This document shows, one piece after another, positions 4,285 to 52,323 of a DNA stretch of 64,000 bases. Each line of letters starts with the position of its first letter. The stretch's first letter is position 1. Source of the DNA: a virus; IMG/VR virus record IMGVR_UViG_3300044644_001125, positions 83,623 through 147,622 of that record, one strand, 5' to 3'. The notes beneath the pieces are model-generated. The model was given only the letters and a program-made list of their open reading frames with translations. It ran no database searches and was not told where the DNA came from. A program made the position numbers and the translations under genes.

Positions 4285-4369
4285 GGTCGTATCCTCGTTG
4301 TAGTGTTTAATGTAGTGCCTTGTTTCAAGGTGGTGATAGTATATTCTTTTATCACCACCTTGTCAATCT

Positions 4370-4780
4370 TTATTTTGCTAATAATCCAATAACTACTGGT
4401 GTTAATTCTTTTACATCATAGCCGTTGCAATACCACCATTGTTTGCCTTGTAGCAGGTAGAAGTATTCGCCACCCTTACGGAATCTAAGCCATTCTTCTA
4501 CATTGGCATGGTTACGACTTTCAATACCAGTTTCGCCTCTATCACGTCCATAGAACGTGGTGCTTTTGACTTTAGTAGCACGGTCAAAGTTGTGTTTATG
4601 ACCTACAAAATCTTTCAGTGAACTAACGTCACCGTTGGCTAGTAGTTGGACTGTTTTTCTTTTGTTGTAGTGTTCTGCTAAGGTTTGTCCTACGCCTTCT
4701 AGGTAGCCGTCCCAGTGGCAGTAAATTGATTGAATTGTTCCGTTTGGTAATACCATTGCGATTGTGCTTCTTGTTGCCAT
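4370..4780 (-). CDS. hypothetical protein; paralog of 56498-56941
   Basis: Shared TTFYGRD(R/L)G(E/D)T and YCHWDG/YVHQNG motifs. Cassette upstream. Confidence 0.6.
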   Translation of the reverse strand: MATRSTIAMVLPNGTIQSIYCHWDGYLEGVGQTLAEHYNKRKTVQLLANGDVSSLKDFVGHKHNFDRATKVKSTTFYGRDRGETGIESRNHANVEEWLRFRKGGEYFYLLQGKQWWYCNGYDVKELTPVVIGLLAK

Positions 4781-4851
4781 TGTCTTTACTCCGTAGTGCT
4801 TTGTTAAGGTGGGTATATTCTAAAAGATAATACCCACCGTGTCAATACTTT

Positions 4852-5787: not shown

Positions 5788-5861
5788 GATTATTCCTCGT
5801 AACTAAAATCAATTATTATACGACATTATCTTTTAGTTTTTACCCATTGTCAATACCCTAG

Positions 5862-5891
5862 ACAAAAAAATGCCCAGCTACAAGAACTGGG
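5862..5891 (-). terminator. rho-independent terminator downstream of tRNA unit
   Basis: Minus strand CCCAG-9nt-CTGGG followed by CAUUUUUUUGUC. Confidence 0.6.
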
Positions 5892-5911
5892 CGAGGTGAG
5901 TGTACATCAGG

Positions 5912-6025
5912 TGCTAATATCAGGCACTACTCCGATACTAGCCTCCTTTGGGTGGTAGATCCGCAAGGCACTACTCCTGCAAATCTATCTGGGTTGCCAA
6001 TACAAGGCACTACTCCTGCATTGAC
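5912..6025. repeat. three direct copies of a GGCACTACTCC(T/G) core
   Basis: caggcactactccgata, caaggcactactcctgca x2, lying between terminator and tRNA. The core resembles the conserved leader GCACTACGGAG. Confidence 0.4.
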
Positions 6026-6233
6026 GGGTACTACCTTAACACAACGAATTGTCTGTTTCATGTCTATTCTCCTAAGAGTAAAACTGTTTGATTACTTTCT
6101 TTGACTGGGTTCTATTCAACGCAATGCCAGTGGATAGAAAGTATCTTATATAATCTTCAACGAATTGTTCACGTTTTGCTTGTCTAATTTGTAATTTGCT
6201 TTTTGCTTTCATTGTCTTTACCTTTATGTTTGT

Positions 6234-6309
6234 TGGTGCCATTACAGGGATTCGAACCCCGATCTTACGCATTATGAGTACGCGGCATTAACCGTTATGC
6301 TATAATGGC
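6234..6309 (-). tRNA. tRNA-Met (anticodon CAU; could be elongator Met or Ile2 if lysidinylated), CCA encoded
   Basis: Manual cloverleaf: acceptor GCCATTA/TAATGGC; D stem GCAT/ATGC; anticodon loop CTCATAA; T arm CGGGG-TTCGAAT-CCCTG; discriminator A; CCA end. Confidence 0.8.
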
Positions 6310-6386
6310 ATTTGTATATTCTAAAAGATAATTGAATCATTGTCAAGCATTATCTTTTAGGGTTGCCGTCCTTGGCAGTGAGTGTT

Positions 6387-6632
6387 TTATTGGTTTGTTA
6401 ATTGTTCATCTAATGCACGTTTTGCAATTACTGCCCATAAGTAAGGGTGGCTAAATTCAGTATCATTCAATGCTTGTTCAACACGTTCATTGTCATCAGC
6501 ATTCAAAGGTATTTCCAATTCAGTTACAGTTTCATCAATGAATGCTAGATACTCTGTGCCTCTAACATGACTGATAAGGTCAAATATTCTTTCTACTGCA
6601 TTTTCTGTTAATGTTATTGTATAGGTTTTCAT
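6387..6632 (-). CDS. hypothetical protein
   Basis: 81-aa ORF. AGAGGCACTACAT-ATG leader variant and CTAAAAGATAAT upstream. Confidence 0.55.
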   Translation of the reverse strand: MKTYTITLTENAVERIFDLISHVRGTEYLAFIDETVTELEIPLNADDNERVEQALNDTEFSHPYLWAVIAKRALDEQLTNQ

Positions 6633-6703
6633 ATGTAGTGCCTCTTTGTTTTATTAATGTGGTGATAGTCTAAAAGATAATCACCACATTGTCAAGTTAT
6701 ATA

Positions 6704-7087
6704 TTAAGCCGCTAATGCGTATGCTTTGTTCCACTGTCCGATATTGATGTCAACATAAAAGCCTCTATCGTGATAATCTGACATAATGTCCGAATTATCA
6801 TAGTTGCCTTCATTCATGATTTCAAGTGCTTTAGTCAAGAACTCGTGTGCAACACCTTTGTTAAACTGGTCGTCTAACCAATAAGGATTGACTTGTATAT
6901 AATCTTTGCTGTAGTTACTGTCTACTTCTTTTAACGCGCCATAGAAGTCGATTTTACCACCTTGTATATTAAGAACGATGGTGTAGCAATGTTTACGCGC
7001 CACAGTTGCTTTGATACCGTATTCTTTTGCTAATGCTCTTAATCTTACTGCTTTCAACTCTTTTTGTTCTTTACTAATGTATGGCAT
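6704..7087 (-). CDS. hypothetical protein
   Basis: 127-aa ORF with class-A cassette. Confidence 0.55.
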   Translation of the reverse strand: MPYISKEQKELKAVRLRALAKEYGIKATVARKHCYTIVLNIQGGKIDFYGALKEVDSNYSKDYIQVNPYWLDDQFNKGVAHEFLTKALEIMNEGNYDNSDIMSDYHDRGFYVDINIGQWNKAYALAA

Positions 7088-7162
7088 GATTTTTACTCCG
7101 TAGTGCTTTGTTAAGGTGGGTACATTCTAGTTTAAAATGCACCCAAAGTCAAGCATTATCTT

Positions 7163-7483
7163 TTAGATATATTCACGTCCTGTTTCTTCAATCAACGCAG
7201 GTGTGAACCAATCACGGTATCTGGTGGCATTCTCACGACCAGCACCCCAGCCAAAATCTTCTACCCAGTATAACTGTTCACCATCAAACTCATCTATCTT
7301 ACCTAAGATAACAAACTGTTTACCAAATACGTCATCATCACTAAAGCCTTGATTGGCTACTGCATCATCTTGAATGAAGTCTAAGAAGTGTGCCAAACCC
7401 ATTGCGTGGTCTGAACCATTGTTCAGTAACCATTCTTTTTGTTCTCTAAGTAACGCCCAGTCTATGTTTTTAAGTGTAATCAT
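7163..7483 (-). CDS. hypothetical protein
   Basis: 106-aa ORF with class-A cassette. Confidence 0.55.
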   Translation of the reverse strand: MITLKNIDWALLREQKEWLLNNGSDHAMGLAHFLDFIQDDAVANQGFSDDDVFGKQFVILGKIDEFDGEQLYWVEDFGWGAGRENATRYRDWFTPALIEETGREYI

Positions 7484-10036: not shown

Positions 10037-10540
10037 TTAGTGTCTTGTTGCTGGCTTGATACCAAAGATGGTATACATCCGTTCATCAAACTTATCTAAG
10101 ATAACGTCTGGTAGGATTTCCATAAGTTCATCTATGATTTCTGCCTTGAGTTGTTCAACATCAATCATTTCAACTTCGGTTTGTTTAGTTGTAAACTCGT
10201 TCTCTTGGCTTAATTGCAAGAGTACCGTTTCAAGGTTATGCAATGTTTTATCCTGTCGAGTGGCAACTTCCCAAAAACCAATTCGATTATAGATAAAGAT
10301 ATAATCAGCATTAGTTTCATCTAAAAGATGATTGAGTGTCTTGTGTATCTCACTTTCATCTAGGTCACCAGTATCATCCGTTATTTCTGCTCTATCTCCT
10401 ATCAACATCAATTTAGAGATGTTACTTTGGTCGATGTTAGCTAAAAGATAACGTCCAACATCTTTTAGAGTTCCTTCGTGGATATAGACGGATTCAACGA
10501 CACCACCTTCTCTTACCCATGCAACTGTACTACTAGGCAT
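10037..10540 (-). CDS. hypothetical protein
   Basis: 167-aa ORF overlapping upstream gene by 8 nt (coupled). Confidence 0.6.
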   Translation of the reverse strand: MPSSTVAWVREGGVVESVYIHEGTLKDVGRYLLANIDQSNISKLMLIGDRAEITDDTGDLDESEIHKTLNHLLDETNADYIFIYNRIGFWEVATRQDKTLHNLETVLLQLSQENEFTTKQTEVEMIDVEQLKAEIIDELMEILPDVILDKFDERMYTIFGIKPATRH

Positions 10541-10832
10541 TTTCTACCTCTCTTGCGATTATATCTGCTATTGTTTCGTCAGTGGCTTTATAGATAAGCC
10601 AGTTACCAATCTGTACCTTATGCTTTGCGTTCATGTACTTTAAACCAAAGTTACCCTCAAAGATTCGTTGTTTAGCGGCTGGGATGATGATAACATCCTC
10701 GCCAATGTACAAGTGGGTTCTGTCGGTATTATCAGTCAACAACGCCTTAAAGGTTGTTTCACTGGTATGGTTATCAACGTACTGTTGGAACAAATCCGCC
10801 ATTGGACTTGTTACTACTTCTTCAAACTTCAT
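10533..10832 (-). CDS. hypothetical protein
   Basis: 99-aa ORF. Imperfect IR CACCGCTAACG..CGTTAACGGTG upstream. Confidence 0.55.
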   Translation of the reverse strand: MKFEEVVTSPMADLFQQYVDNHTSETTFKALLTDNTDRTHLYIGEDVIIIPAAKQRIFEGNFGLKYMNAKHKVQIGNWLIYKATDETIADIIAREVENA

Positions 10833-10893
10833 GTTATCGTTCCTTGTTAGCTCACCGCTAACGCGGTTCGCACGTTAACGGTGAAGTTGTTAG

Positions 10894-11142
10894 TTAAGCT
10901 GGGTTAAGTATCTGTAATCCGTAGATTAAATCTTCGTCTGTAATCTCATCGTATGAGAGTATGTATTGTTCGCCATCATCAACTGTATGTACATGAATCA
11001 TCTTATCCTCTGGTGATAAGCCATCAATCACATAATCAACGTCATCTTTTACAATTAAGAATGCTTGTTCGATTAAGGTATTAAGTTGTTCTCTTGTTCT
11101 CATTGGTAGTGCCTCTTTGTTAGTGTAGTGGTATGGTATCAA
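10894..11142 (-). CDS. hypothetical acidic protein
   Basis: 82-aa ORF with AGAGGCACTACCAATG leader. Confidence 0.55.
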   Translation of the reverse strand: MIPYHYTNKEALPMRTREQLNTLIEQAFLIVKDDVDYVIDGLSPEDKMIHVHTVDDGEQYILSYDEITDEDLIYGLQILNPA

Positions 11143-11162
11143 TTATCTTTTAGGTTGTCAAC

Positions 11163-11411
11163 TTATTTCTTACTGTCCATTAAGTCTTGCATACCGTCTA
11201 AGTGGTAGATTCGATTCTTATGGAATACAAACCCACCTATGTTTGTAAAGTAAATTTTGCAGTAGTTAGTTGCAATGTCTTTTTGGAAGTGGGTGAATAC
11301 TGCAATACCCGCAATCAACGCGCCAATCGCAATACCACTAACAAATGCTCTTAATCCCCTAAAGTTATCTGATACTTCTACTAATCTTGGTTTCTGTTCG
11401 TAAGTTGCCAT
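11163..11411 (-). CDS. small membrane protein
   Basis: 82-aa ORF with one TM helix. AGAGGCACTACAGATG leader. Confidence 0.55.
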   Translation of the reverse strand: MATYEQKPRLVEVSDNFRGLRAFVSGIAIGALIAGIAVFTHFQKDIATNYCKIYFTNIGGFVFHKNRIYHLDGMQDLMDSKK

Positions 11412-11443
11412 CTGTAGTGCCTCTTTGTTAAGTTGTGGCTATT

Positions 11444-11632
11444 CTAAAAGATAATCGAACTGCTGTCAACAACTTTCTGTAACAAGGTTCTCATGTCTTG
11501 GCATTCGCTGTCATCTTCTTCTGAAAACTCATAACCAAACGCAATAATATATTCTAAGGCAGTTTTAATCAAGTCTACTTCATTTGCGTCAAAGTTCATG
11601 TTACTGTACTCTATAGTTATGTTTAAGGTCAA
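11444..11632 (-). CDS. hypothetical acidic protein
   Basis: 62-aa ORF. CTAAAAGATAATCG..TTGACAGCAG upstream. Confidence 0.45.
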   Translation of the reverse strand: MTLNITIEYSNMNFDANEVDLIKTALEYIIAFGYEFSEEDDSECQDMRTLLQKVVDSSSIIF

Positions 11633-11867
11633 TGTCTGGTGTCAATGGCATTGGTTTAGCTTTCGTATCAGTTCTTGGTAAGTGGATTTGTTTATGGTTA
11701 ACGATAACATACTCTACCGTAAACTTATCTGGGCAAATCTGATACAAGGTTTCACCACTGCAATGTACATGGTCATAGAATCCTGTTTCATCTGGGAAGT
11801 CTGGTACATCAATAACCGCGTGTGCATTGGTGGTAAAAATGGCTAGTGCTAGTAGTAATTTCTTCAT
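11601..11867 (-). CDS. secreted small protein
   Basis: Signal peptide MKKLLLALAIFTTNAHA. Confidence 0.55.
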   Translation of the reverse strand: MKKLLLALAIFTTNAHAVIDVPDFPDETGFYDHVHCSGETLYQICPDKFTVEYVIVNHKQIHLPRTDTKAKPMPLTPDIDLKHNYRVQ

Positions 11868-17446: not shown

Positions 17447-17525
17447 GCGGTTTCTCTGGGTTGTGGTTATTTGTGGGTACAGTCTAAAAGATAATTAACC
17501 CAATGTCAAGCATTATCTTTTAGGC

Positions 17526-29858: not shown

Positions 29859-29912
29859 TGGTTTTCTCTAAAAGATAATAAACAAACAGTCTACATTATC
29901 TTTTAGTTTCGG

Positions 29913-38158: not shown

Positions 38159-38194
38159 GACTAAAAGATAATTGAAGTTAGTTTCGATTATCTT

Positions 38195-38527
38195 TTAGCA
38201 ATCCCGCACTGGTCTAACTAGGGTAGTATTCACGTATTTGTCATCCCAAGTGGTGTGCATGTCAACCAGCAGTGGCATCGCAAGCCACGCACATCCTGAG
38301 TAATCAACATGCTCCTCGCTGGACCAGTATCTAGGATACTTCCGATAATTCATTGTCTGGGTATGTTCCGAAGTGATTAACCCTCTTGACCCAAGCCAAT
38401 GCAATTCTCGCATCGTTGGTAATCTCCAACCAACCTTTCCATCGATGTTCAACGAAAAACAATACAAACGGGCTTCATCCCATGCGAGTGCTTTGATGTA
38501 TTCTAATGGTGCAAGTTCTATGTTCAT
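38195..38527 (-). CDS. DUF1566-like protein (long variant)
   Basis: Start moved to MNIELAPLEY. LYCFSLNIDGKVGWRLPTMREL..LVRPVRDC. Confidence 0.55.
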   Translation of the reverse strand: MNIELAPLEYIKALAWDEARLYCFSLNIDGKVGWRLPTMRELHWLGSRGLITSEHTQTMNYRKYPRYWSSEEHVDYSGCAWLAMPLLVDMHTTWDDKYVNTTLVRPVRDC

Positions 38528-38832: not shown

Positions 38833-39360
38833 TTAGACATTCCTAACCGGAATAGTAACCCTGTTACTATCTAAATCCTCGAAGTCATATTCATCATCTT
38901 CGAATCCATAAGTGGTAACAGGCCCATCACTTGGCATTTCATAGGGACGAGAACCATACACGTGATTCTCCTCGTCGTAGAATGGTTCAGTAGATGTATA
39001 CACCCAGTTTTCTTGTTTCAATGCTGTTAGTAAATTGGGTTCTGCTTGTTTACGAATAATCTCGCATTCATAAACAGTTGGTAATCGCCATCCAATCTTA
39101 CCATCGATATTCAAAGAAAAGCAATACAACTTTGCATGCTCAAAAAGAAAGTCTTGACTCCAATAATCCCTCGGTGAAATCTCAAGTTTAGCATAATCCA
39201 ACTCGTCAGCTTTGTTATGTAACGCAATAGCAAATTCACGTGCAGTTGCTGTATCAACCTCACCAACTGATGCCCAACTAATGGTAGATGGATTTACTGT
39301 TTCAAAATCAACAGAAGATATGTACGGTTCAGAAACCGTTATCAATTTTTTAACGTTCAT
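38833..39360 (-). CDS. two-domain protein with C-terminal DUF1566-like domain
   Basis: C-terminal LYCFSLNIDGKIGWRLPTVYECE...IPVRNV. N-terminal 80 aa unrelated. Confidence 0.55.
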   Translation of the reverse strand: MNVKKLITVSEPYISSVDFETVNPSTISWASVGEVDTATAREFAIALHNKADELDYAKLEISPRDYWSQDFLFEHAKLYCFSLNIDGKIGWRLPTVYECEIIRKQAEPNLLTALKQENWVYTSTEPFYDEENHVYGSRPYEMPSDGPVTTYGFEDDEYDFEDLDSNRVTIPVRNV

Positions 39361-39752: not shown

Positions 39753-39998
39753 TTAAGGATTGTCAATAGTTCTTACTGCTCTGACTGACAAGTTCTGATC
39801 AACCAAGTAATCGTCATCAGATGACCAATACCAAGCCCAGTGCGAAGATTCGGAATTTTTAGAAAGTTCTTTAAGCTCGTCACTTGTTGGTAATCTCCAA
39901 CCTATCTTACCATCAACACTAAGAGAAAAGCAATACAATTTTGCAGCATCTAATGAATTAGTGAATGTTTCGGTTTCGATTGGTGACAACTCAATCAT
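39753..39998 (-). CDS. DUF1566-like small protein
   Basis: MIELSPIETE..LYCFSLSVDGKIGWRLPTSDEL..YWSS..VRAVRTIDNP. Confidence 0.6.
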   Translation of the reverse strand: MIELSPIETETFTNSLDAAKLYCFSLSVDGKIGWRLPTSDELKELSKNSESSHWAWYWSSDDDYLVDQNLSVRAVRTIDNP

Positions 39999-40282
39999 AG
40001 CGTTCTGACTGGTCTAGCCTGCGAAAGCATTGTGGGTAAGTGCTCTATTGTAGTGACTCCACCGTATTGGATATGGAAGATGCAACCATGATTGTTGTCT
40101 TTTGCATTGATCCAGCATGAGCCTGGAACTTCAATATCCATTCGTCCTAGTTCTTGCATTTCAGATATAGTAGGTAAACGCCATCCAGTTTTACCGTCGA
40201 TGTTTAATGAAAAACAATATACAATTGCTTCATCAATAGTTAAGGTCTTTTCGTATTCAGGTGGTGATAATTCAAAGTGCAT
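39995..40282 (-). CDS. DUF1566-like small protein
   Basis: MHFELSPPEY..VYCFSLNIDGKTGWRLPTISEM..ARPVRTL. Confidence 0.6.
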   Translation of the reverse strand: MHFELSPPEYEKTLTIDEAIVYCFSLNIDGKTGWRLPTISEMQELGRMDIEVPGSCWINAKDNNHGCIFHIQYGGVTTIEHLPTMLSQARPVRTL

Positions 40283-40329
40283 ATAGTGCCCAATGTAACA
40301 TTCAATTAAACTATAGGATATTAAATATC

Positions 40330-40416
40330 GCGAGGCACGTTAGTGCCGAGCCATTACTAATATCCGGGAGTGTGTTAATATTATGGTTATGATTGCGAGG
40401 CACGTTAGTGCCGAGC
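40330..40416. repeat. pair of GC-hairpin elements (GCGAG-gcac-gtta-gtgc-CGAGC) upstream of HNH gene
   Basis: Copies at 40330-40352 and 40395-40416. Confidence 0.6.
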
Positions 40417-40514
40417 TAATCTCTCTTTTTCTGTTATAAGGATAAATAAGTGTAGTCCACGGATTTGGCGATCCTGACTACTTTAGAACTATTAACTTTA
40501 GAGGAGTTCCAACT

Positions 40515-41822
40515 ATGACTATTTATGCCAAAATTTTAGCAACAAAAGAACACAACGAACGTCAACTAAGAATCTACGTAAAATACATCGCAAAATGTGC
40601 AGTATTAAACGAGAATCTTTCAGAAGATACCTACACAGAGCTTCATCATATCTGCCCTAGAGTATTCTTTCCTGAATACAAAAATCTAAAAGATCATCCT
40701 TGGAATGGGATACGATTAACACTAGGCCAACACTTCACAGCCCATTTGATTCTTTCAAACGCATATACGTTTAACGGTGCTATGTCTCAAGCATTTTACC
40801 TTATGTGCACACAGAATGGAAGTAAAGGTCAAGCAGTTGTTGATAGGTTCAAAAACTTGAAAACCTACTACGAAGATGCTCGTAACCTAGTCATCAACTC
40901 TCAACGCGGTTTAACTATGGTTAAAAACAAAGAAACCGGTGTGTTTGGTCTGATTCCGGTAGAAGAGTACACTGCAAATCCTGATTTATACGAAACTGCC
41001 ACTACTGGCATGGTAACAGTTCGCGATATTGAAACCGGTGAAATAATGAGTATGTCATGCGAAATTTACCACGCGAATAAGGACAAGTTTACTGCCATGA
41101 ATACTGGAATCGTGCACGTCACAGACAAATTGACTGGTGAGAAGAAACGCATACCATCAGAAGAATATCAAGCAAATAAAGAAAGCTACACAACTTCTGG
41201 GTCTGGAGTGACTACTGTTAGAGAATTAGCAACTGGTATTGTAATGAGTGTACCCGTCGATGAGTACTCAAACAATAAAGATCGATTCGAAAGCATTGTT
41301 ACTGGAACTACAACTGCAAGATTAATAAGCACCGGTGAGATGGTTGTTATCCCAGTAGAAACATACCATGCAAATCGTGATTTATACGAAACTGCTACTA
41401 CTGGTCTATTGACTGCAAAAAACAAATTAACAGGTGAATCTGTTAGATTGACCAGAGAGGAATATGAGGCAAATAAGGATTTGTATCACTTCCACACATC
41501 TGGAGTGTCAGTTATATCGACTATTACCGGTAAGAAATCGCGCATATCATGGGATGAATTTGAAAACAATCCTACCTTGTATTATAGAGTAAGCAATGTA
41601 CGGTCAATATACGAACTAGGGAGTTACTCAAAACCAATAGATTATGTAAAACTACCACACGAAGTCAGTAATAAGTCCAGTTGGGTTCATAACCCAACCA
41701 CTGGTGAATGTAAAAAGATATCAAAACACGAATACGTTGAATTAGATTGGTTAGCTGGTATCACACCAGAATATAAAAAACAATTAGAACGTGAACGTTA
41801 CCATGCTAACAAAGTAAAGTAA
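40515..41822 (+). CDS. HNH homing endonuclease with C-terminal ~28-aa tandem repeats
   Basis: MTIYAK..ELHHICPRVFF..WNGIRLTLGQHFTAH (HNH). At least 8 repeats of TG..T(V/A)R..(E/T)G. Conserved leader AAGGATAAATAAG..CGGAT..GGC shared with 48072-49133. Confidence 0.7.
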   Translation: MTIYAKILATKEHNERQLRIYVKYIAKCAVLNENLSEDTYTELHHICPRVFFPEYKNLKDHPWNGIRLTLGQHFTAHLILSNAYTFNGAMSQAFYLMCTQNGSKGQAVVDRFKNLKTYYEDARNLVINSQRGLTMVKNKETGVFGLIPVEEYTANPDLYETATTGMVTVRDIETGEIMSMSCEIYHANKDKFTAMNTGIVHVTDKLTGEKKRIPSEEYQANKESYTTSGSGVTTVRELATGIVMSVPVDEYSNNKDRFESIVTGTTTARLISTGEMVVIPVETYHANRDLYETATTGLLTAKNKLTGESVRLTREEYEANKDLYHFHTSGVSVISTITGKKSRISWDEFENNPTLYYRVSNVRSIYELGSYSKPIDYVKLPHEVSNKSSWVHNPTTGECKKISKHEYVELDWLAGITPEYKKQLERERYHANKVK

Positions 41823-41829
41823 TTATCTT

Positions 41830-42180
41830 TTAGTACCCTGTCGTGTTGGAATCATTGCGTGGTTCCTGCACTTCAGGTTTTTGATGGAACTTCTTTCTAT
41901 CAGGTTTTTCCGGTTGAAACTTTTGAAATTTACCAGAAGTTGATCTTACTGGTGGCGAAATTTTAAATTTTCCATCTCTTTGATCCGCTGCATTCTTTGC
42001 ACAAGATTTAGAAAATGAAGGATGACCATTATTTGAAATGCAGTTGGATGGGTCCGTTATTTTGTGTTTTTTGGACCAGTCAAATCCACTTTTCGACCCG
42101 GAACAGTCTTTCGTGCACGGTAATCCGTTGTATGATAACCCTGAATAGGTCAACTCTGTTATAATTTCATGTATTCTCAT
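41830..42180 (-). CDS. hypothetical Lys/Cys-rich protein (MRIHEII N-terminus)
   Basis: 116-aa ORF with Cys/Lys-rich core, loosely similar to 61224-61484. Confidence 0.5.
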   Translation of the reverse strand: MRIHEIITELTYSGLSYNGLPCTKDCSGSKSGFDWSKKHKITDPSNCISNNGHPSFSKSCAKNAADQRDGKFKISPPVRSTSGKFQKFQPEKPDRKKFHQKPEVQEPRNDSNTTGY

Positions 42181-42217
42181 GTTTGTATTTATTCACTAAA
42201 AGATAATCAACCCAACT

Positions 42218-42282
42218 AGCTCGAGCCTATCGGCTCTCGCAAATTCACATAACCCAACAAGCTCGGCACTAACGTGCCTCGC
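42218..42282. repeat. pair of GC-hairpin elements downstream of HNH cassette
   Basis: agctcgagcctatcggctctcgc and gctcggcactaacgtgcctcgc. Confidence 0.6.
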
Positions 42283-42354
42283 AATCAACAATTCAACCTA
42301 TATTATATCACATCTAACATAACCACCCAATAAATACCTATAGGTACTAAAACT

Positions 42355-43110
42355 ATGGAGGGTTTGTACGTGAAGAAATTACTAACCGTGGCTATCAATA
42401 GCTACAATGTTGCACCGCTACGCGGTTGCGTAAATGACAGCAATAATATACTAAATGTGTGCGCAGCTAATGGTTATCAAACAGTTCAACTTATTGAAGA
42501 CCAAGCAACCAAACACAATATTATGACTAAGTTACTAGAAATCAGCAAAGAACTAGTTGACGGAGATAAGTTTATGTTTCACTACTCTGGTCATGGTTCA
42601 CAAATTCCATGCAACGATGGCACTGAAACCGATGGTTTAATGGAAGTGCTTTGCCCATTTGATTTAATCAATCCGAATGGTAGTTGGAACAATACATTCA
42701 TCATGGATAACGAGTTACATGATATATTCTGTCAGTTTGCACCAGGTGTTGAAATCGAATGCTTACTTGATTGCTGTCATTCAGGTACTGCAACTAGAGA
42801 TTTAAAACCAAATGTTGCTTATCGTTATATTAGTGCAGGTGTTATCAACTCAGAACCTATGGTTATTAAGTTTAATGTCTCTTGTACACGTGAAGTTATC
42901 TGTTGGTCTGGGTGTAAAGACGAACAAACATCTGCTGATGCATTCTTAGATGGTACGTATCAAGGTGCATTTACAGCAGCACTGCTAAAAACTACAGGTA
43001 CTAGACGTGAACGATTTGCAATGCTTACTGCTATTTTAAAGCAAGTTGGCTTTCCGCAAGAGCCGCAGTTAACTTGCGCGGAATCTCTGTTGGATCAACC
43101 TTTGTTTTAA
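42355..43110 (+). CDS. caspase-like (peptidase C14) domain protein
   Basis: His site FHYSGHGS and Cys site LLDCCHSGTA in canonical order and spacing. Start may be GTG at 42370 after GGAGGG. Confidence 0.65.
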   Translation: MEGLYVKKLLTVAINSYNVAPLRGCVNDSNNILNVCAANGYQTVQLIEDQATKHNIMTKLLEISKELVDGDKFMFHYSGHGSQIPCNDGTETDGLMEVLCPFDLINPNGSWNNTFIMDNELHDIFCQFAPGVEIECLLDCCHSGTATRDLKPNVAYRYISAGVINSEPMVIKFNVSCTREVICWSGCKDEQTSADAFLDGTYQGAFTAALLKTTGTRRERFAMLTAILKQVGFPQEPQLTCAESLLDQPLF

Positions 43111-43249
43111 TTCTGTACTGGCTTGCTATTTCGGATACTGCGGCATGCCAATTGGCTTCAGTATCCAAACTACCATTTAACCACCGGTAATAAGCAGCTT
43201 CTTCGACCATCTTGCTGTATTGTGTGTAATTAACTAAACCGCTTCTCAT
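43031..43249 (-). CDS. hypothetical protein (uncertain; overlaps 3' end of caspase gene)
   Basis: 72-aa ORF. Start codon overlaps stop of GT gene by 4 nt. Has a convergent 80-nt overlap with 42355-43110. Confidence 0.35.
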   Translation of the reverse strand: MRSGLVNYTQYSKMVEEAAYYRWLNGSLDTEANWHAAVSEIASQYRIKTKVDPTEIPRKLTAALAESQLALK

Positions 43250-44247
43250 CTTACACCTACCAAGTTTGATTTAAAGATTTCCCAGCAATTCTCCCAAGTC
43301 CATTTGGCAGCACTAGACTTCACTGTCTCACGGTCCAAATGTAAGCATTTCGTGATAGCATACTCTAAGTTTTCATTCATCACGCCATTGACTCCTTGCA
43401 CAAGTATATCAATTGGACCAGGAACTGGATACGCAGCAACACCACACCCCATAGCCAGCGCTTCGATAATAACAATCCCGAATGTATCTACACGGCTTGT
43501 GAATACAAATACATCTGCTTGGTTATAATACTCTGCTAACTCAACACCATGTTTGTATCCAACGAAGTTTACTAGCGGATAACGTTCCTCAAGCTCTGCT
43601 CTATGTGGACCATCACCAATAACAGTAATTGCATAAGCAGGATTAACCGATAACTCACATAAGTCTTCAATGCCTTTTTCTTTAGAGACTCGACCAACTG
43701 AAAGTAACTTAATCTCGTTATCAGAAGTTCTTGGTTCAGTTGGAATGAACTTTTCTCGGTCAACGCCACGTGTCCAAGGAATAACAGGAACTTTGAAACC
43801 GTGTACTTGTAATTCTTTAACCATACTCGTAGTTGTAGTTAATACTAAATTAGAACGAGCATGGAACCAACGAACATAAGCATAGGTTAAGAACTCAGGA
43901 ATGTTATACAGCGTCTTAACAAACTCTGGAAAACGCGTATGATAGGATGTGTTGTATTTGTACCCATTAAAACAGCACCAGTTACGAACTGCCACCCCAA
44001 TAGGCCCTTCGGTACTGATGTGAATAAAATCTGGGTTAATTGATTTGATAAGTTTACCAACCCCAAATGGAATGCTTAACTTGACTTCTGGGTATCTAGG
44101 TGCAGAAAAGTAACAGAAGTCACTAGGTGTAATATACTTTACCTGATAACCATCTAGCAGTGCTTGCTTTTCAATATTAACAAAGGTAGTTACTACCCCG
44201 TTGATTTGACCATGAAGATTGTCTGATACTATTAAAATTGTTTGCAT
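43246..44247 (-). CDS. GT4-family (GT-B) glycosyltransferase
   Basis: 333 aa. C-terminal VGRVSKEKGIEDL..VIGDGP..LEE pattern of retaining GT4 enzymes. Confidence 0.7.
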   Translation of the reverse strand: MQTILIVSDNLHGQINGVVTTFVNIEKQALLDGYQVKYITPSDFCYFSAPRYPEVKLSIPFGVGKLIKSINPDFIHISTEGPIGVAVRNWCCFNGYKYNTSYHTRFPEFVKTLYNIPEFLTYAYVRWFHARSNLVLTTTTSMVKELQVHGFKVPVIPWTRGVDREKFIPTEPRTSDNEIKLLSVGRVSKEKGIEDLCELSVNPAYAITVIGDGPHRAELEERYPLVNFVGYKHGVELAEYYNQADVFVFTSRVDTFGIVIIEALAMGCGVAAYPVPGPIDILVQGVNGVMNENLEYAITKCLHLDRETVKSSAAKWTWENCWEIFKSNLVGVR

Positions 44248-44402
44248 TCTGCGACTACCTTGAACCCTGAGAATTTTAGTTTGTACTCTAACGTTTTAGC
44301 TGTTTGAATACATTCTTGTTCTGATTTTAAATTTAGTTTGATTTCCCCTGGAATGTCAGTTGGATCAAACAGGTTAATTGCGAGTAAGACTAAGGTCCAC
44401 AT
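44230..44402 (-). CDS. unlisted small ORF (57 aa) using cassette-type SD
   Basis: ACGGAGTTAAAGT-ATG mimics the conserved leader. Not in the six-frame track (<60 aa). Confidence 0.35.
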
Positions 44403-44542
44403 ACTTTAACTCCGTTGTTTGGTTAGTTTGTATTCTCTATCTTGTTTTATCATCTCTTTGATGATGATTGGTGATATTAAAATCACGATGATGGTTACAA
44501 CGGTATTAACTGCAATTGTGAAAAGACATTTGCCCACTTGTT
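44403..44542 (-). CDS. unlisted small hydrophobic peptide (GTG start)
   Basis: GGAGAAACAAGTG start context mimics GGAGTAAACAAGATG. Single TM. Confidence 0.3.
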
Positions 44543-44586
44543 TCTCCTAACTTAAATGTATTTAAGAAGAGTATAACATGTAAGTA

Positions 44587-45015
44587 TTACAGGAGTGTGT
44601 CAGTTGGTTCTAAAAGATAATCTAAATCATCTTTTAGGTCAGGGAATTGGTTCTTTAGCCTAGCAGCCAATGACTTCTGTAGTTTGTTATTCTTAGTATT
44701 ACCAGTACCAGATTCGTTATGTGAGAACAAACCAAACAAATATAGTTTTGATGGTGAACCAGCTATTCGGTATACTATGCTAATATCCTGTGACAAATGC
44801 GCATGTTTAAGTTTCATTTTTCCAAGAGGACCATCCGAGTTGTATGGATAATCAGACGATCCAAATTTCTGGGCTGGGTTTTGTGCTTTCATTCGAATGA
44901 AGTCATTTGCCTTATTTTCCAATGTTCGATACTTAATAAGTGATTCGTCATACGCAGGACACATTTCAACCTTAAGCATCAGCTTCACCACTGCAGATTT
45001 TTCTATTATGTGCAA
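44587..45015 (-). CDS. RelE/YafQ-fold-like protein (possible toxin)
   Basis: C-terminal KHAHLSQDISIVYRI..LYLFGLFSH resembles YafQ H..xD..LIYK...F.TGTH. Confidence 0.4.
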   Translation of the reverse strand: MHIIEKSAVVKLMLKVEMCPAYDESLIKYRTLENKANDFIRMKAQNPAQKFGSSDYPYNSDGPLGKMKLKHAHLSQDISIVYRIAGSPSKLYLFGLFSHNESGTGNTKNNKLQKSLAARLKNQFPDLKDDLDYLLEPTDTLL

Positions 45016-45160
45016 TAGCTTCTTCGACTGTCATTTCAGTCCATGGTCCATTAAGTGCAGCATCCAATATCTTAGCACGGTCTTCATCACTGAACAACTG
45101 ATCATCGTCAGGTCTTGCAAATTCATTTAATCTCATCGTTTTCTCCTCTTGTATTTTCAC
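44972..45160 (-). CDS. small protein with GPWTxMTxEE repeat unit
   Basis: One copy of a ~30-aa unit present three times across 44972-45455. Confidence 0.45.
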   Translation of the reverse strand: MKIQEEKTMRLNEFARPDDDQLFSDEDRAKILDAALNGPWTEMTVEEAIAHNRKICSGEADA

Positions 45161-45455
45161 AAAGTTTTCGGGTATGCTCTATCATCTCATCTGCCGTTCT
45201 AGTAACCCATTTGCCATTTTCAGCAGCATCTAAAACTGTAGCAATATCTTCTTCACTAAAATGATCGCCACACGCGCAGTATTCTACATCTTCTTCATTA
45301 TCTTTTAGTGCAGACTGGGCAATCTTATCATGCAACTCAAGTAACTCTTCTAAAGTCATTTTAGTCCAAGGACCATTCTCAGACGCGATTATTCTAGCAA
45401 TATCCGCTTCACTAATCAAGTCATATTCGTTTGTGAATTCTTCATCTTCGTCCAT
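45123..45455 (-). CDS. acidic protein with two GPWT/GKWV repeat units
   Basis: ENGPWTKMTLEELLELHDKI and ENGKWVTRTADEMIEHTRKL. Confidence 0.5.
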   Translation of the reverse strand: MDEDEEFTNEYDLISEADIARIIASENGPWTKMTLEELLELHDKIAQSALKDNEEDVEYCACGDHFSEEDIATVLDAAENGKWVTRTADEMIEHTRKLCENTRGENDEIK

Positions 45456-45456
45456 A

Positions 45457-45666
45457 TCAAAACCTATCCAAGTTGTCTTTAACCCATTTTAGAACACTTA
45501 TGCGTTCATTATCTTTTAGGTCACTGCAAAGTACGGATGCTTTAATCGCATCTCCACGTACAGTGATTATCATTCGCGGTTTTGAATCAATCGTATCTGA
45601 CCAAGAAATGGATTCTCCAATTTTCAAATAGCCGTTTAGTTTTGTATCATCTGGTGCCAGTATCAT
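45457..45666 (-). CDS. hypothetical protein
   Basis: 69-aa ORF. Confidence 0.45.
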   Translation of the reverse strand: MILAPDDTKLNGYLKIGESISWSDTIDSKPRMIITVRGDAIKASVLCSDLKDNERISVLKWVKDNLDRF

Positions 45667-46039
45667 ATAGTCTCTCTTTTATACTTAATATTGAAATCAT
45701 GTGTAAGTTCTTGAGTTCTTCTTTCTCTTCGCATTCAGGTAATACATCTAAATCAAAATACCTAAACGCGCTGTCATCTTGTAAAGCTGCATTTAAACAA
45801 ACCGCAGGTGTTAACTCATAAACATACAGCAGAGCTTCTAAGTTTTGTGCAACTGCTGCTTCACAAATAGCAGCAGTTTGTTGTTCTACAAATTGAAGTG
45901 CTAATCCGTTTTGAGTCACTGCAGCCAAACAAATTTCAAAAGTCTGCGTATCGACCCATTCCAAAGTCATGCCATCACGCCGTACCGACGCAAGACATTG
46001 TTCAACTGTTTGATTAGGAATAGCACGTAAATCGATCAT
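45647..46039 (-). CDS. DUF4116-like repeat protein
   Basis: Repeats LAAVTQNGLALQFV and AAVAQNLEALLYV. Confidence 0.45.
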   Translation of the reverse strand: MIDLRAIPNQTVEQCLASVRRDGMTLEWVDTQTFEICLAAVTQNGLALQFVEQQTAAICEAAVAQNLEALLYVYELTPAVCLNAALQDDSAFRYFDLDVLPECEEKEELKNLHMISILSIKERLYDTGTR

Positions 46040-47266: not shown

Positions 47267-47491
47267 CTATTTAACTGGTTTGTAAAAGGCTAAGAAATAC
47301 AAGATGACTAAGATCGAATCGTTAAACAGAAAGAATTTCAAATCAGCTTCAAAAGTTTCAATTTCTTTTAGATATTCGTCAACTATTATTGCTGCAGATA
47401 GGGCAAACATTAAGGGTACTCCTACATCTGCTATTCGTTTGTGCATGGCTTTTCTCCTAGGTATACTAGTATATATCTCGCACTGGTACAA
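47267..47491 (-). CDS. small membrane protein
   Basis: 74 aa with two hydrophobic segments. Confidence 0.4.
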   Translation of the reverse strand: MYQCEIYTSIPRRKAMHKRIADVGVPLMFALSAAIIVDEYLKEIETFEADLKFFLFNDSILVILYFLAFYKPVK

Positions 47492-47759
47492 TACTATAAT
47501 GCAATTTTAATTTCTCGCCATCACCCAGTTCCAGGTATCCAGATCTTATGTCAACTATACCAGTATCACAGATGTACCAAAAGTCTAAGTATGCAAACGT
47601 CGAAACTCCATGGACTTTTCCACGTATCGAAAATAATTCCGCATAAGTAGGAAATCTCCAGCCTACTTGATCGTTTATAACAAGTGAGAAACAATACAAC
47701 TTTGCTTCATTTATGGTCAAATCTTTCCAGTATTCGATTGGTGCTATTTGTATAGTCAT
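47466..47759 (-). CDS. DUF1566-like small protein
   Basis: MTIQIAPIEY..LYCFSLVINDQVGWRFPTYAEL..IVPVRDIY. Confidence 0.55.
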   Translation of the reverse strand: MTIQIAPIEYWKDLTINEAKLYCFSLVINDQVGWRFPTYAELFSIRGKVHGVSTFAYLDFWYICDTGIVDIRSGYLELGDGEKLKLHYSIVPVRDIY

Positions 47760-47809
47760 TGTTTGTAATTATAACTTAAAGATAATTGATGTCAAGTTCA
47801 TGATTGATT

Positions 47810-47935
47810 GCGAGGCCTGATAGGGCCGAGCCTAATGTTAATGCGTTATTTGCTCTTCTTGATTAATGTAATTACTTGCGAGGCCTGATAGGGCCGAGCC
47901 TTGCTGTATTTTGCGAGGCCTGATAGGGCCGAGCC
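47810..47935. repeat. three tandem GC-hairpin elements (GCGAG-gcc-tgatag-ggc-CGAGCC)
   Basis: Copies at 47810-47832, 47878-47900 and 47913-47935, directly upstream of HNH gene. Confidence 0.65.
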
Positions 47936-49183: not shown

Positions 49184-50386
49184 TTAGTCTGTATAGTGAA
49201 CGGTTTGTCCATACGAAGCGGTAGCGGATTCATTACCGAATACGATAAACAATGTATCCACTAGTTCACCGATGGCTGGCACCTCGTCGCTCACATACAG
49301 GTCAGTAAAATTAAGGAGTTTTTTAGGGCTTAGATTATTCTCTTTTAGGTATTCTAAAATACATCTATAATCTGTGCCACCACCACCAACTGGTTCATAA
49401 GTTAACAAATCACCAGCATTGTCATGCGTAATTAAAATTGGATTGTAAATGTCAACATCATAACAGAATAAATGAATTTTATAATCAGTATACTGACTCA
49501 TGATACCAGAGATCTCACCTAAGAATATAGAGATTTCGTTTTGTCCAATAGATCCACTCATGTCTAAAGCAATTGCAATGTCAATCGTTTGTTCTGGAAT
49601 CATACCAGGTAGAATAGCTCCAGATGCCCAACCTTTACGACTAGGTCTACTGAATGAATAGTTACTACGAACAATCGATTGAATGTTCATCTGTAATAGT
49701 TCACGCCAATTCATTTTAGGTTCAGTCATATCTTGAATCAGTCTTTTAATAGCAGCAGGTACATTACCAGCGGCGGCCGCATGTGCTTGGACCATCGCTT
49801 CTTTCAAAGAATCTCTGATCTCCTGCCATTCTGCTTTTGAAAACTTAGGTCTACCGCTACCTTCTTTACCATCTTCGTCGCCGTCGCCATCACCGCTATC
49901 ATCTTGAGAGAGGTGGTCGTCTAATGAATCCATGCCTGCGAGTATGTCATCGAGTGACACTACGGTCGCGTTTTCAATAAGTAATTCGTAGATCTCCTCC
50001 CAAGATTTTCCACGATAGACTGGATCCAAGCACAGAGGAACTTGATCAATAACCGTTCCAATCTTTTCATCTACGAGCAGTATGTTTATGGCGAAATCTT
50101 GGGCTATATTTGACAACCGAGCATCTCGTGAGCCACGCCGCAAAAAATGTTCAAAACAAATGTGAAGAATCTCATGACCGAATAAGAATTCAAGTTGTTT
50201 AACTGATAGTTTTTCAACGAATTCGGTGTTGTAATAGAAGTCTTTCCCATTAGTGGCCGCCGTTTGGCACCACGAACTGCTCTCCACAAGTTTCATCCGA
50301 GATGCCAAATTACCAAAAAAGCTAGCCCGTAGCATGAGACCGATGCGAGCAACCGTGAGTTTTTCTTCGATGGGAGTTAGTAACAT
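49184..50386 (-). CDS. vWA domain protein with N-terminal HExxH (DUF2201-like) domain; partner of MoxR ATPase
   Basis: FGHEILHICFEHF. C-terminal MIDAS IDIAIALDMSGSIG. Acidic linker. Confidence 0.7.
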   Translation of the reverse strand: MLLTPIEEKLTVARIGLMLRASFFGNLASRMKLVESSSWCQTAATNGKDFYYNTEFVEKLSVKQLEFLFGHEILHICFEHFLRRGSRDARLSNIAQDFAINILLVDEKIGTVIDQVPLCLDPVYRGKSWEEIYELLIENATVVSLDDILAGMDSLDDHLSQDDSGDGDGDEDGKEGSGRPKFSKAEWQEIRDSLKEAMVQAHAAAAGNVPAAIKRLIQDMTEPKMNWRELLQMNIQSIVRSNYSFSRPSRKGWASGAILPGMIPEQTIDIAIALDMSGSIGQNEISIFLGEISGIMSQYTDYKIHLFCYDVDIYNPILITHDNAGDLLTYEPVGGGGTDYRCILEYLKENNLSPKKLLNFTDLYVSDEVPAIGELVDTLFIVFGNESATASYGQTVHYTD

Positions 50387-50615
50387 AATGTATATTCCTG
50401 TTGTTTAGTTGTTAAGGTGAGTGTATTGTAGCTAAAAGATAATTGACTGTCAAGTTGTTTCTAAAAGATAACTAAAAGATAATTGATTCATAATGCACCA
50501 TATACTAAAAGATAATTGGTATATCTGGGACCTAAAAGATAATTGACTGTCAAGATGTTTCTAAAAAATAACTAAAAGATAAGGTACCCATAATACAAAT
50601 CCAAGAATACCAAAT
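50387..50615. promoter_or_regulatory. array of 9 CTAAAAGATAA(T/C) motifs with overlapping divergent TTGAC boxes
   Basis: Minus orientation: TTGACAGTCAATTATCTTTTAGC-TACAAT promoter for 49184-50386, with the motif inside the spacer. Palindromic TTGACTGTCAA x2. Confidence 0.5.
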
Positions 50616-51237: not shown

Positions 51238-52323
51238 TTACTTATCTGACATCGCTTGGATGATCAATTTGCCATATTTTTCAGAGAACTGGTGGAATGA
51301 AGGCATTTTGGTTGCATCGAATGGTAAGTTATAAGATACCAAGCCGGTTCTTGCACCCATCACAACTAATTCAGTTGGGAAGTTAGCCATCATGTAGGTA
51401 AAGAAGTTGTTAGCCATGTCATTCCAACCGGCTGCTTTCTTGTCAGCACGATCTTTTAACTCGTAGCAAAGTGAAATAGTCAACGAGTACATAGCTGAGA
51501 TTTCTTTAACGTCTAGTTTAGTTACTTTACCATCTAAGATATCATCAGCAGTTGGCATTTTACCAGCGATTTTGCGATGAGCCATAAACTTGATACTTAG
51601 ACCATCACCGATAGCACCAGCAACTAAGGTATGTAAGGTTTCGCTATCGATAGTAGATTCATCATCTAGCAATTCAGATACGAAAGACCAAGAGCGTGGT
51701 GTAGCGAATGCTTTACTAGAGCTTGCTGGTTTAAAGTCATACAAGTCTTGTTTAGCAAAACCCAAGTAACCAATAACTTCAGGATGGATTTGGTTTTGGA
51801 TTGCCCATTCTTGCCAGTCATCGAAATCTGTGGTAGTTTCCAAATGGACGAAACGGTTTGCTAGAGGACTTGGCATACGGAATGTTACACCTCTATCGCC
51901 ATCGCGGTTACCAGCTGCCACAATATCTACACCTTCTGGTAAGACATAGTTACCTACTCTACGGTTTAAGATAAGTTGGTAAGCAGCGGCTTGAACTGCT
52001 GGTGGTGCTGAGTTTAATTCGTCTAAGAAGAGAATCGCAGTTGATTCTGGATCACTAGGTAATTCAGCAGGTTCTGCCCATAGCATGGTTTTAGCTTCTT
52101 GGTTGTAATAAGGAATACCTTTGATATCGGTAGGTTCCCAGAGTGCTAAACGGATGTCAATAACTTCACGGTGTTGTTCTTGACCGATTTGTTTGACCAG
52201 ATCCGACTTACCAATGCCTGGTGCGCCCCAGACAAAAATAGGACGGCGTTTTTTGATTGAGTGTTGAATTGCTTTTTTTGCTGCTTTAGGGCCAACTAAA
52301 CGTGTGCTGATATCTGTGCTCAT
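51238..52323 (-). CDS. MoxR-family AAA+ ATPase (CobS/CbbQ-like)
   Basis: Walker A VWGAPGIGKSDL. Walker B ILFLDELN. 361 aa. Adjacent to vWA partner. Confidence 0.75.
   Translation of the reverse strand: MSTDISTRLVGPKAAKKAIQHSIKKRRPIFVWGAPGIGKSDLVKQIGQEQHREVIDIRLALWEPTDIKGIPYYNQEAKTMLWAEPAELPSDPESTAILFLDELNSAPPAVQAAAYQLILNRRVGNYVLPEGVDIVAAGNRDGDRGVTFRMPSPLANRFVHLETTTDFDDWQEWAIQNQIHPEVIGYLGFAKQDLYDFKPASSSKAFATPRSWSFVSELLDDESTIDSETLHTLVAGAIGDGLSIKFMAHRKIAGKMPTADDILDGKVTKLDVKEISAMYSLTISLCYELKDRADKKAAGWNDMANNFFTYMMANFPTELVVMGARTGLVSYNLPFDATKMPSFHQFSEKYGKLIIQAMSDK

Follow-up and report, generated by a model that had tools for sequence, protein, structure and literature searches.

The stretch of DNA analyzed here, a 64-kb window from IMG/VR virus record IMGVR_UViG_3300044644_001125 ("the window" below means this whole stretch), encodes a compact cysteine protease which profile matches and a structure model confirm as a genuine member of peptidase family C14, clan CD. 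From its sequence and model we predict with high confidence that it is an active, Arg/Lys-directed protease of metacaspase type. The reading which best joins the results, and which we hold tentatively at a little under an even chance, is that of a late accessory protease acting on proteins of the infected cell, with a GT4 glycosyltransferase gene close by on the other strand being independent of it. The window is a segment of a jumbo phage, in agreement with an earlier note on this DNA which had treated it as phage: its MoxR-type ATPase is 52% identical to the homologue of Pseudomonas phage PA5oct, a close relative of the window lies on a 271,688-bp metagenomic scaffold, and the window has numerous small genes and encodes HNH endonucleases as well as a tail-fibre-like protein. 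The coordinates of the features are collected in Table 1.

The protease and its family

The earlier note, made from the letters alone, had described a 251-residue plus-strand open reading frame (ORF) with FHYSGHGS and LLDCCHSGTA and assigned it to the C14 caspases/metacaspases. The ORF was found as described, carrying the motifs FMFHYSGHGSQ and CLLDCCHSGTATRD, and the assignment was borne out: Pfam Peptidase_C14 (PF00656) matched residues 9-241 over profile positions 4-225 of 233 with 73.7 bits (E=2e-20), against a cut-off of 21.4 bits. CHAT, which had been named beside C14, gave no match among the Pfam profiles. The best sequence matches among solved structures (phmmer) were Yca1 (E=5e-25), Candida glabrata MCA1, GSU0716, AtMC4, AtMC9 and TbMCA2. 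The predicted dyad proved sound as well, since His80 aligned to Yca1 His220 and Cys141 to Yca1 Cys276 (HYSGHG with HYSGHG, DCCHSGT with DSCHSGT), and in the C276A mutant chain of Yca1 (4f6p, DSAHSGT) Cys141 stood opposite the substituted Ala.

The real start of the gene is probably the GTG at 42370, which gives a protein of 246 residues, because the homologues begin with MKK at the position equivalent to Val6 of the long ORF, because a GGAGG Shine-Dalgarno sequence is spaced 8 nt before this GTG, and because one of the two genomes closest to the window lacks the upstream ATG. The three genomes compared were the window and these two relatives, labeled L001 and L092; in L092 the upstream ATG is replaced by TAT, and GGAGG and GTG are kept.

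Across 25 homologues (38-96% identical) the catalytic His80 and Cys141 were invariant, together with Cys25, Asp28, Ser78 and Asp139. The GCVND segment of the protease aligned to GCIND of Yca1, and LLDCCHSG to LFDSCHSG. The four additional residues match Cys92, Asp95, Ser156 and Asp211, which we take to form the acidic S1 pocket of TbMCA2. An acidic S1 pocket confers Arg/Lys specificity on metacaspases, and the alignment thus predicts a pocket of the Arg/Lys (C14B) type for the phage enzyme. With regard to the Ca2+-binding Asp cluster of type I/II metacaspases, four acidic residues, E91, D93, E97 and D103, were invariant in the alignment, but the phage clade has (M/T)E at the Asp-Asp pair of Yca1.

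The AlphaFold2 model had a predicted local distance difference test (pLDDT) score of 81 and a predicted template modeling (pTM) score of 0.81, with low confidence only at residues 143-177. Foldseek matched it with probability 1.0 and template modeling (TM) scores of 0.63-0.74 to AtMC9, GSU0716, AtMC4, Yca1 and MALT1, consistent with the p20-like fold expected in the earlier note. The model suggests a caspase-type alpha/beta fold, p20 followed by p10, which is metacaspase-like. The disordered linker between p20 and p10 (residues 143-177) starts two residues past the catalytic Cys and bears an invariant Arg148 and a near-invariant Arg157. We infer that these two residues are candidate autoprocessing sites, from the analogy with the linkers that join the subunits of caspases and metacaspases. 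No prodomain, signal peptide, membrane segment or accessory domain was found in the 251-residue protein, and strand beta-1 begins at residue 7 of the longest ORF, leaving no prodomain of the type I metacaspase kind.

Compared with the type I metacaspases (Yca1/Mca1, 4f6o; C. glabrata MCA1, 7qp0; TbMCA2, 4afp), the phage protease shares the dyad motifs HYSGHG and D-x-CHSG, the predicted acidic S1 pocket, the p20-p10 order and the fold, with a best structure match of E=5e-25. However, it has no N-terminal prodomain, it is about 100 residues shorter, and the p20-p10 insertion is shrunk to the 35-residue disordered linker. GSU0716 from Geobacter sulfurreducens (PDB 3bij) is, like the phage protease, a compact single-chain p20-p10 protein with no prodomain; it ranks among the top matches in both sequence and fold (E=1e-18; Foldseek E=2e-15, TM 0.69), although the two are only about 25% identical. 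Cyanobacterial orthocaspases such as MaOC1 are likewise compact prokaryotic single-chain proteins without a prodomain. Bacterial homologues often bear extra domains (e.g., PG_binding_1), whereas the phage clade never does. In sequence the protease thus appears closest to the type I metacaspases, and in architecture to stand-alone bacterial proteins like GSU0716; the C14 metacaspase/orthocaspase group gains with it a new, compact member carried by a phage.

Relatives of the protease were rare among deposited phages. A nucleotide search with positions 40000-46000 gave no match in a collection of 50,697 phage records, cultured or deposited, and only one of these records encoded a homologue of the protein, the 485-kb uncultured phage LR745208.1 (33% identity), where the neighbors, a 2H phosphoesterase and a VWA protein, were uninformative. 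A large protein database held 5,809 homologues, including a tight clade of single-domain proteins of about 245 residues, 43-96% identical, carried by phage-like contigs as long as 249 kb. In IMG/VR, an alignment-based scan found at least 131 viral contigs encoding relatives. In the viral structure library BFVD, the only significant matches were proteins of giant eukaryotic viruses and no bacteriophage protein was among them. These metacaspases (Fadolivirus, Clandestinovirus, Yasminevirus, medusavirus and others; E to 5e-16, TM 0.75) are longer than the phage protease, with 330-420 residues, are 16-30% identical to it and belong to viruses with eukaryotic hosts.

The protease of the window is 96% identical to that of L001 and 88% identical to that of L092, while the flanking genes are 71-73% identical. 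The ratio of nonsynonymous to synonymous substitution rates (dN/dS) among the three genomes was 0.06-0.08, and the gene is under strong purifying selection.

Timing, genomic settings and candidate roles

The protease gene is preceded by a candidate late promoter of T4 type (Table 1). The late promoters of T4 have the sequence TATAAATA. The window, L001 and L092 share the block ACC(A)CCCAATAAATACCTATAGGTACTAAAACTATGGAGG upstream of the protease, with TAAATA invariant. A TAAATA box was present 30-50 nt before the protease start in all ten readable loci of the close clade, representing about six independent lineages, whereas 15-17% of the other genes in these loci have TAAATA in that position; judged from these sequences, a chance origin is unlikely. 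At the same distance TAAATA also preceded the scaffold and Gp23 capsid genes in three loci (L007, L008 and L011), and the capsid gene was separated from the box by a stem-loop with a T-run in L008 and L011. No sigma-70-like promoter or intrinsic terminator was found for the protease gene, and the 12-nt early-promoter motif described below had no copy in the protease's own orientation. By analogy with T4, the TAAATA box together with the T4-type capsid genes of these phages suggests, with moderate confidence, that the protease is transcribed late and from its own promoter.

Two kinds of genomic setting were observed. In the group of the window and in that of L002/L004, the protease gene stands alone on the opposite strand among small ORFs. 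In five other lineages (P0014/L007, P0019/L008, P0023, P0029 and L011) it lies within a structural module, and the genes immediately ahead of it, co-oriented, are those for a coiled-coil scaffold-like protein of about 305 residues and a Gp23-type major capsid protein (phrog_138, E=6e-94), and the genes downstream of it are unrelated from one lineage to the next. Between lineages the protease is 52-67% identical, the scaffold 56% and the capsid protein 69-75%. The divergence of the protease is comparable to that of the scaffold and somewhat above that of the capsid, which is compatible with long vertical co-inheritance. These capsid proteins share 52-58% identity with those of the Xanthomonas phages XacN1 and Xoo-sp13, the Stenotrophomonas phages CM1 and RAS14 and the Ralstonia phage RsoM2USA. 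Two contigs had additional neighbors of other kinds. On P0005 (JGI 3300059473, 8,748 bp), Cas6f/Csy4-like and response-regulator receiver genes lie a few genes upstream of the caspase, and a convergent M10-like metallopeptidase gene overlaps its end; on P0014 (76,336 bp), a second C14 paralogue lies 4 kb downstream, together with RnlB-antitoxin-like and NADAR genes.

The conserved order of scaffold, capsid and caspase genes on one strand, with all the downstream genes differing, raises the alternative that the protease is associated with the virion, either processing scaffold, internal-head or structural proteins after Arg or Lys beside the prohead protease, or being packaged and delivered. 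Virion structural-protein homologues follow the protease in L007 and tail-fibre-like genes follow it in L008, and the TAAATA box shared with the head genes fits this role too. However, the protease lies away from capsid genes in the window, L001, L092, L002/L004 and the P0028 and P0005 contigs; cultured relatives build the same type of capsid without it; and in the two records inspected, XacN1 and Xoo-sp13, other and unrelated genes occupy this variable slot behind the capsid gene. The motif L-x-E is the cleavage motif of the T4 gp21 type, and the N-terminal ML-x-E of the capsid protein, in its propeptide, is kept in phages with and without the protease. The capsid proteins show no basic site peculiar to protease-bearing phages, and the protease has no N-terminal extension usable as a capsid-targeting peptide. 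We consider a virion role unlikely, though it is a serious contender. Replacement of the prohead protease by this enzyme was rejected as the main explanation, since the L-x-E motif is kept regardless and cultured relatives do without the gene. For the same two reasons we regard the protease, with moderate confidence, as an accessory gene rather than a core morphogenetic one.

A variant in which a caspase-fold protease was recruited to the late head module of jumbo phages with T4-like capsids, to act on the virion or to be injected into the next host, seems to us distinctly improbable. The clan-CD fold is not known from tailed-phage morphogenesis or from the proteins that such phages eject.

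Bacterial C14 and CHAT proteases serve as effectors of defense systems, and the phage gene could in that light be a carried suicide or exclusion effector, or an inactive decoy titrating host factors. The gasdermin-activating, type III CRISPR-associated CHAT and EACC1-associated caspases share the fold and the His/Cys dyad with the phage protease, and there is a domain-level likeness to the PADLOC "caspase" model (E=1e-13, protease residues 10-170 only) and a weak match to the NCBIfam EACC1-associated caspase model NF047832 (28 bits against a cut-off of 140). Both matches, however, span the p20 half only and are far under the curated cut-offs, and membership in a defense system was rejected because they are partial and below threshold. 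Moreover, in about ten protease contexts no sensor, nucleoside triphosphatase (NTPase), gasdermin or CRISPR partner genes were seen. Unlike the defense caspases, the protease has no CHAT match and no sensor or partner genes, is encoded by a phage and is apparently late. A decoy is disfavored because the catalytic and pocket residues are all invariant and dN/dS is 0.06-0.08, and a moron-type exclusion gene because the gene has been retained long-term in jumbo phage genomes of lytic type. We therefore judge a suicide, exclusion or decoy function to be very unlikely.

The preferred reading, a late accessory protease directed at the infected cell, would work as follows. The protease would be transcribed on its own from the T4-type TAAATA late promoter, alongside the expression of the head genes, and would be made as a zymogen-like single chain that is activated by cleavage at Arg148 and/or Arg157. 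The product would be a soluble, single-domain cysteine endopeptidase, p20 then p10, with no prodomain or sensor, cutting after Arg or Lys. Late in infection it would cleave proteins of the infected cell, which we propose as its targets with low confidence, in the dismantling or turnover of host proteins; alternatively, it may disable host suicide defenses triggered by late virion proteins. The GT4 enzyme would meanwhile glycosylate diacylglycerol, its gene, acquired on a cassette, being transcribed within an early operon of sigma-70 type on the opposite strand.

Several points weigh against this reading. In five lineages the gene lies next to scaffold and capsid genes, which suits a virion role at least equally well. 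Counter-defense genes are usually early, not late, and the late-promoter call itself relies on a 6-nt motif and the analogy with T4. Where the Yca1 segment DGMDDVIYPVD has its Asp-Asp pair, the phage clade has (M/T)E, which bears on the cofactor requirement and even on robust activity. A loose link between GT4 and caspase genes is conceivable, as a second adjacency of the two was found on one other viral contig, L041, the only one besides the window group. Finally, viral caspases may have several roles, because one clade lies amid ClpX, Hsp20 and ClpS genes and another, that of L041, is membrane-anchored and follows PlcP and Agt genes.

The first of these is a distant viral caspase clade (33-37% identical, 308-333 residues; L016, L017, L019-L023, L025, L028-L030, L033, L037, L051 and L052). 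Its conserved block of neighbors, read by eye from the N-termini, comprises ClpX-like, Hsp20/IbpA-like, ClpS-like and ATP-dependent-ligase-like proteins. The block had been considered as a portal-protease-scaffold-capsid module, which was rejected because the neighbors look like ClpX, Hsp20/IbpA, ClpS and DNA ligase; if the reading by eye holds, it is a phage proteostasis neighborhood.

The glycosyltransferase cassette and the gene between

The 333-residue GT4 protein matched Pfam Glycos_transf_1 (1e-21) and Glyco_transf_4 (1e-12). Its top matches in NCBIfam, all sub-threshold, were monoglucosyl-diacylglycerol synthase, IagA/BgsA and processive diacylglycerol glucosyltransferase. In reference genomes, the relatives in Pelagibacteraceae, Methylophilaceae, SAR202 and other groups show 40-46% identity. 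Assignment as a "conflict-system" GT4 was rejected, as PF20706 scored 16 bits against a cut-off of 26. Agt of Agrobacterium and GTcp of Pelagibacter HTCC7211, at 334 residues, have nearly the same length and share the GT4 GT-B domains. The window protein carries GRVSKEKG and FTSRVDTFG, corresponding to the GTcp motifs GRVxxEK and F-x-S-x-x-DTFG. Its H103 and D254 correspond to His104 and Asp256 of GTcp (the mutated GTcp residues were taken from the mutagenesis list in PMC8231724) and were invariant in 22 sequences, as were the donor-site residues G17, G81, G84, R186, K191, T255, F256, G257 and E262.

PlcP and Agt form a lipid-remodeling operon of phosphorus stress, in which Agt/GTcp is the synthase of both glucosyl- and glucuronosyl-diacylglycerol (PMC4796936, PMC8231724). 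We examined 80 bacterial Agt loci and the best 80 of more than 581 viral ones. A PlcP-type metallophosphoesterase gene ended just upstream of the Agt relative in 46 of the bacterial loci, and PlcP was present in 75 of the best viral loci. No PlcP homologue was found within the window, and given how often the relatives are paired with it, the window GT4 appears to be a PlcP-less derivative; it also differs from Agt and GTcp in being encoded by a phage, and its activity is predicted. These comparisons suggest a diacylglycerol glycosyltransferase of the Agt/GTcp type, that is, a glycolipid synthase of phosphorus-sparing lipid remodeling. The family is commoner still among viruses: the more than 581 viral contigs in IMG/VR that encode an Agt-type GT4 do so at 53-63% identity. 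The viral copies (loci L175-L254, L041 and L098) are thereby nearer to one another than to the bacterial genes (40-46%).

A 56-residue ORF with a hydrophobic N-terminus travels with GT4: it was directly upstream of Agt in 49 of the best 80 viral loci, in L092 and in a metagenome-assembled genome of Bacteroidia. GT4, this ORF and a 43-residue hydrophobic ORF together make up an insertion cassette, present in L092 and missing from L001, which has about 38 nt instead. GT4 and the 72-residue gene described below are included in a minus-strand operon running from 47759 to 43031, which has a perfect sigma-70-type promoter at its head.

The earlier note had placed the caspase and the converging GT4 gene in one island with hairpin repeats on its flanks, and had read from the GT4 gene a glycosylation of DNA or a protein; taken further, this would make the two genes one module in which glycosylation is linked to proteolysis. 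The GT4 identity and the convergence were correct; direct adjacency was not, because a 72-residue gene lies between the two. The order GT4, 72-residue gene, caspase is kept in L092, and L041, a viral contig of 110 kb that is unrelated, has at 4408-7305 a tandem of PlcP, Agt and a 344-residue caspase bearing a transmembrane helix at its C-terminus (Agt 42% and caspase 32% identical to those of the window). Nevertheless, L001 keeps the caspase and the 72-residue gene without the cassette, only two lineages among 89 viral caspase loci have GT4 as a neighbor, and none of the 160 Agt loci (80 bacterial, best 80 viral) has a caspase within 6 kb. The GT4 protein has the donor, acceptor and catalytic residues of GTcp, with relatives that follow PlcP; the two genes lie on opposite strands, the GT4 operon having a promoter of early type and the caspase a box of late type; and the hairpins occur genome-wide. 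A joint module is largely refuted by these comparisons and seems to us scarcely credible. Because of its kinship with Agt and the PlcP-Agt operons, the absence of the cassette from L001, the lack of caspases near the Agt loci and its place in a sigma-70-type operon, GT4 would instead be an independently acquired lipid gene unpaired with the caspase, and a coupling of DNA or protein glycosylation to proteolysis is not supported.

The 72-residue ORF, whose reality had been doubted in the earlier note, is a real gene, judging from its conservation in L001 (93% identity) and L092 (75%). With its final 26 codons and its stop it extends over 80 nt at the 3' end of the protease gene (43031-43110). 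In the 46 codons outside the overlap, the proportions of nonsynonymous and synonymous differences (pN/pS) were 0.054/0.225 and 0.16/0.61. The 78-nt overlap held no substitution between the window and L001, at a synonymous divergence of about 0.3 elsewhere, which points to a tail constrained dually with that of the protease. The L092 orthologue scored 21.6 bits against DUF2934 (cut-off 22). In the P0029 contig a DUF2934 gene lies two genes downstream of the caspase.

Repeats, other features of the window and significance

The hairpin GGCTCG-N4-loop-N4'-CTCGCAA occurred in 19 copies in the window, against 0.46 expected. In its fuller form, GGCTCG-N4-(T)A(N)C-N4'-CTCGCAA, there were six different self-complementary stems with conserved flanks and no T-run. 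Of the stem cells, 96.8% were paired, and compensatory double changes were found in 28 cells, compared with 10.4 after shuffling (none of 500 shuffles reached this value). The copies are found between genes, commonly a short way upstream of a promoter. Hairpins are indeed present upstream of the protease, as the earlier note had said; rather than bordering an island, they mark transcription-unit boundaries genome-wide. An Rfam search gave a tRNA as its sole match, and the hairpin belongs to no known RNA family. It may act as an insulator, as a site of processing or as an element associated with promoters.

A 12-mer, ATTATCTTTTAG, was present in 50 exact copies in the window, 40 of them non-coding, at a chance expectation below 0.01 (examples at 6321-6360, 17484-17523, 29868-29906, 38161-38198 and 50432-50581; copies near the protease and GT4 at 41822-41833, 42196-42207 and 44610-44621). 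Many copies supply the spacer plus the beginning of the -10 box in a sigma-70-type promoter, TTGACA-N5-ATTATCTTT-TAGAAT, and a second, inverted 12-mer often lies just upstream of the -35 box, which gives an operator-like look. Several copies are only 9-10 nt from an ATG and thereby imply leaderless mRNAs.

The gene divergent from the protease encodes a Cys-rich protein of 116 residues, which is kept beside it (71-73% identity in L001 and L092), gave no match in family searches and has the 12-mer promoter-type motif 16 nt upstream of its ATG. Further upstream is an HNH/homing-endonuclease-like gene (phrog_655, E=5e-19). It is 72% identical in L001 and absent from L092, and therefore behaves as a mobile insertion by the protease locus. 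This gene has internal repeats spaced by about 396 nt (74 nt, 80% identical), and L001 has HNH-like genes at 4079-5494 and 10259-11668, including a 45%-identical paralogue. A multigene family of small proteins with the motifs IEIAPxEY... and CFSLNIDGKxGWRLPT (Pfam Lcl_C type in relatives) has among its members those at 38833-39360, 39753-39998, 39995-40282 and 47466-47759 and others with minus-strand starts, for example, at 26147, 27995 and 29867; many of its members sit behind the 12-mer promoter motif. The MoxR-type AAA ATPase gene (51238-52323) is about 0.9 kb from a gene for a DUF2201/VWA-like protein (49184-50386); in L092 five small ORFs separate the two, at a distance of about 2 kb.

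Table 1. Positions of the features in the 64-kb window
Feature	Positions	Strand	Remarks
HNH/homing-endonuclease-like gene	40515-41822	+	optional insertion
116-residue Cys-rich gene	41830-42180	-	divergent from protease gene
Hairpins upstream of protease	42218-42242, 42260-42284	+	divergent intergenic region; kept in L001 and L092; AGCTCG-N4-loop-N4'-CTCGCAA
TAAATACCTAT box	42331-42341	+	candidate T4-type late promoter; ends 33 nt upstream of GTG 42370
Protease ORF	42355-43110	+	251 residues as longest ORF; Peptidase_C14, metacaspase-type cysteine protease
Shine-Dalgarno GGAGG	42357-42361	+	8 nt before GTG 42370
Candidate start GTG	42370-42372	+	gives 246-residue protease
Catalytic His80 codon	42592-42594	+	in FHYSGHGS
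Catalytic Cys141 codon	42775-42777	+	in LLDCCHSGTA
72-residue gene	43031-43249	-	DUF2934-like; convergent with protease, between protease and GT4
Insertion cassette	43234-44617		GT4, 56-residue ORF and 43-residue ORF; about 38 nt in L001 instead
GT4 gene	43246-44247	-	333 residues; predicted Agt/GTcp-type diacylglycerol glycosyltransferase
56-residue ORF	44232-44402	-	hydrophobic N-terminus; travels with GT4
43-residue hydrophobic ORF	44406-44537		on insertion cassette
12-mer ATTATCTTTTAG at cassette right border	44610-44621		the border falls inside this copy
Promoter TTGACA-N16-TATAAT	47795-47790 (TTGACA), 47773-47768 (TATAAT)	-	perfect sigma-70-type; head of operon 47759 to 43031
Hairpins at head of GT4 operon	47808-47832, 47876-47900, 47911-47935	-	followed by TTGACA-N16-TATAAT
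Hairpin starts (25 nt each)	9286, 13923, 16690, 18858, 21134, 22124, 23225, 24530, 25173, 27218
Hairpin starts, rest (25 nt each)	40328, 40393, 42218, 42260, 47808, 47876, 47911, 63486, 63531
tRNA-Met	6234-6309

In the literature searched, phage caspases appeared as annotations in passing and no functional work on them was found; "metacaspase-1", for example, is listed among the auxiliary genes of viral metagenome bins (bioRxiv 10.64898/2026.01.21.700432). A viral PlcP-Agt auxiliary gene set was likewise not described in that literature. The viral cassette of PlcP, the 56-residue ORF and Agt is widespread, and suggests that large aquatic phages rewire the membrane lipids of their hosts, probably sparing phosphorus.

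Caspase-family proteases are known as executioners of cell death and as suicide effectors of bacteria against phages, and here a phage encodes an intact one without a sensor. The enzyme class is ordinary; a conserved, apparently late and head-gene-linked caspase in jumbo phages is unusual. Its substrates would tell whether it serves to dismantle the host, to blunt late-triggered abortive infection or to process the virion.

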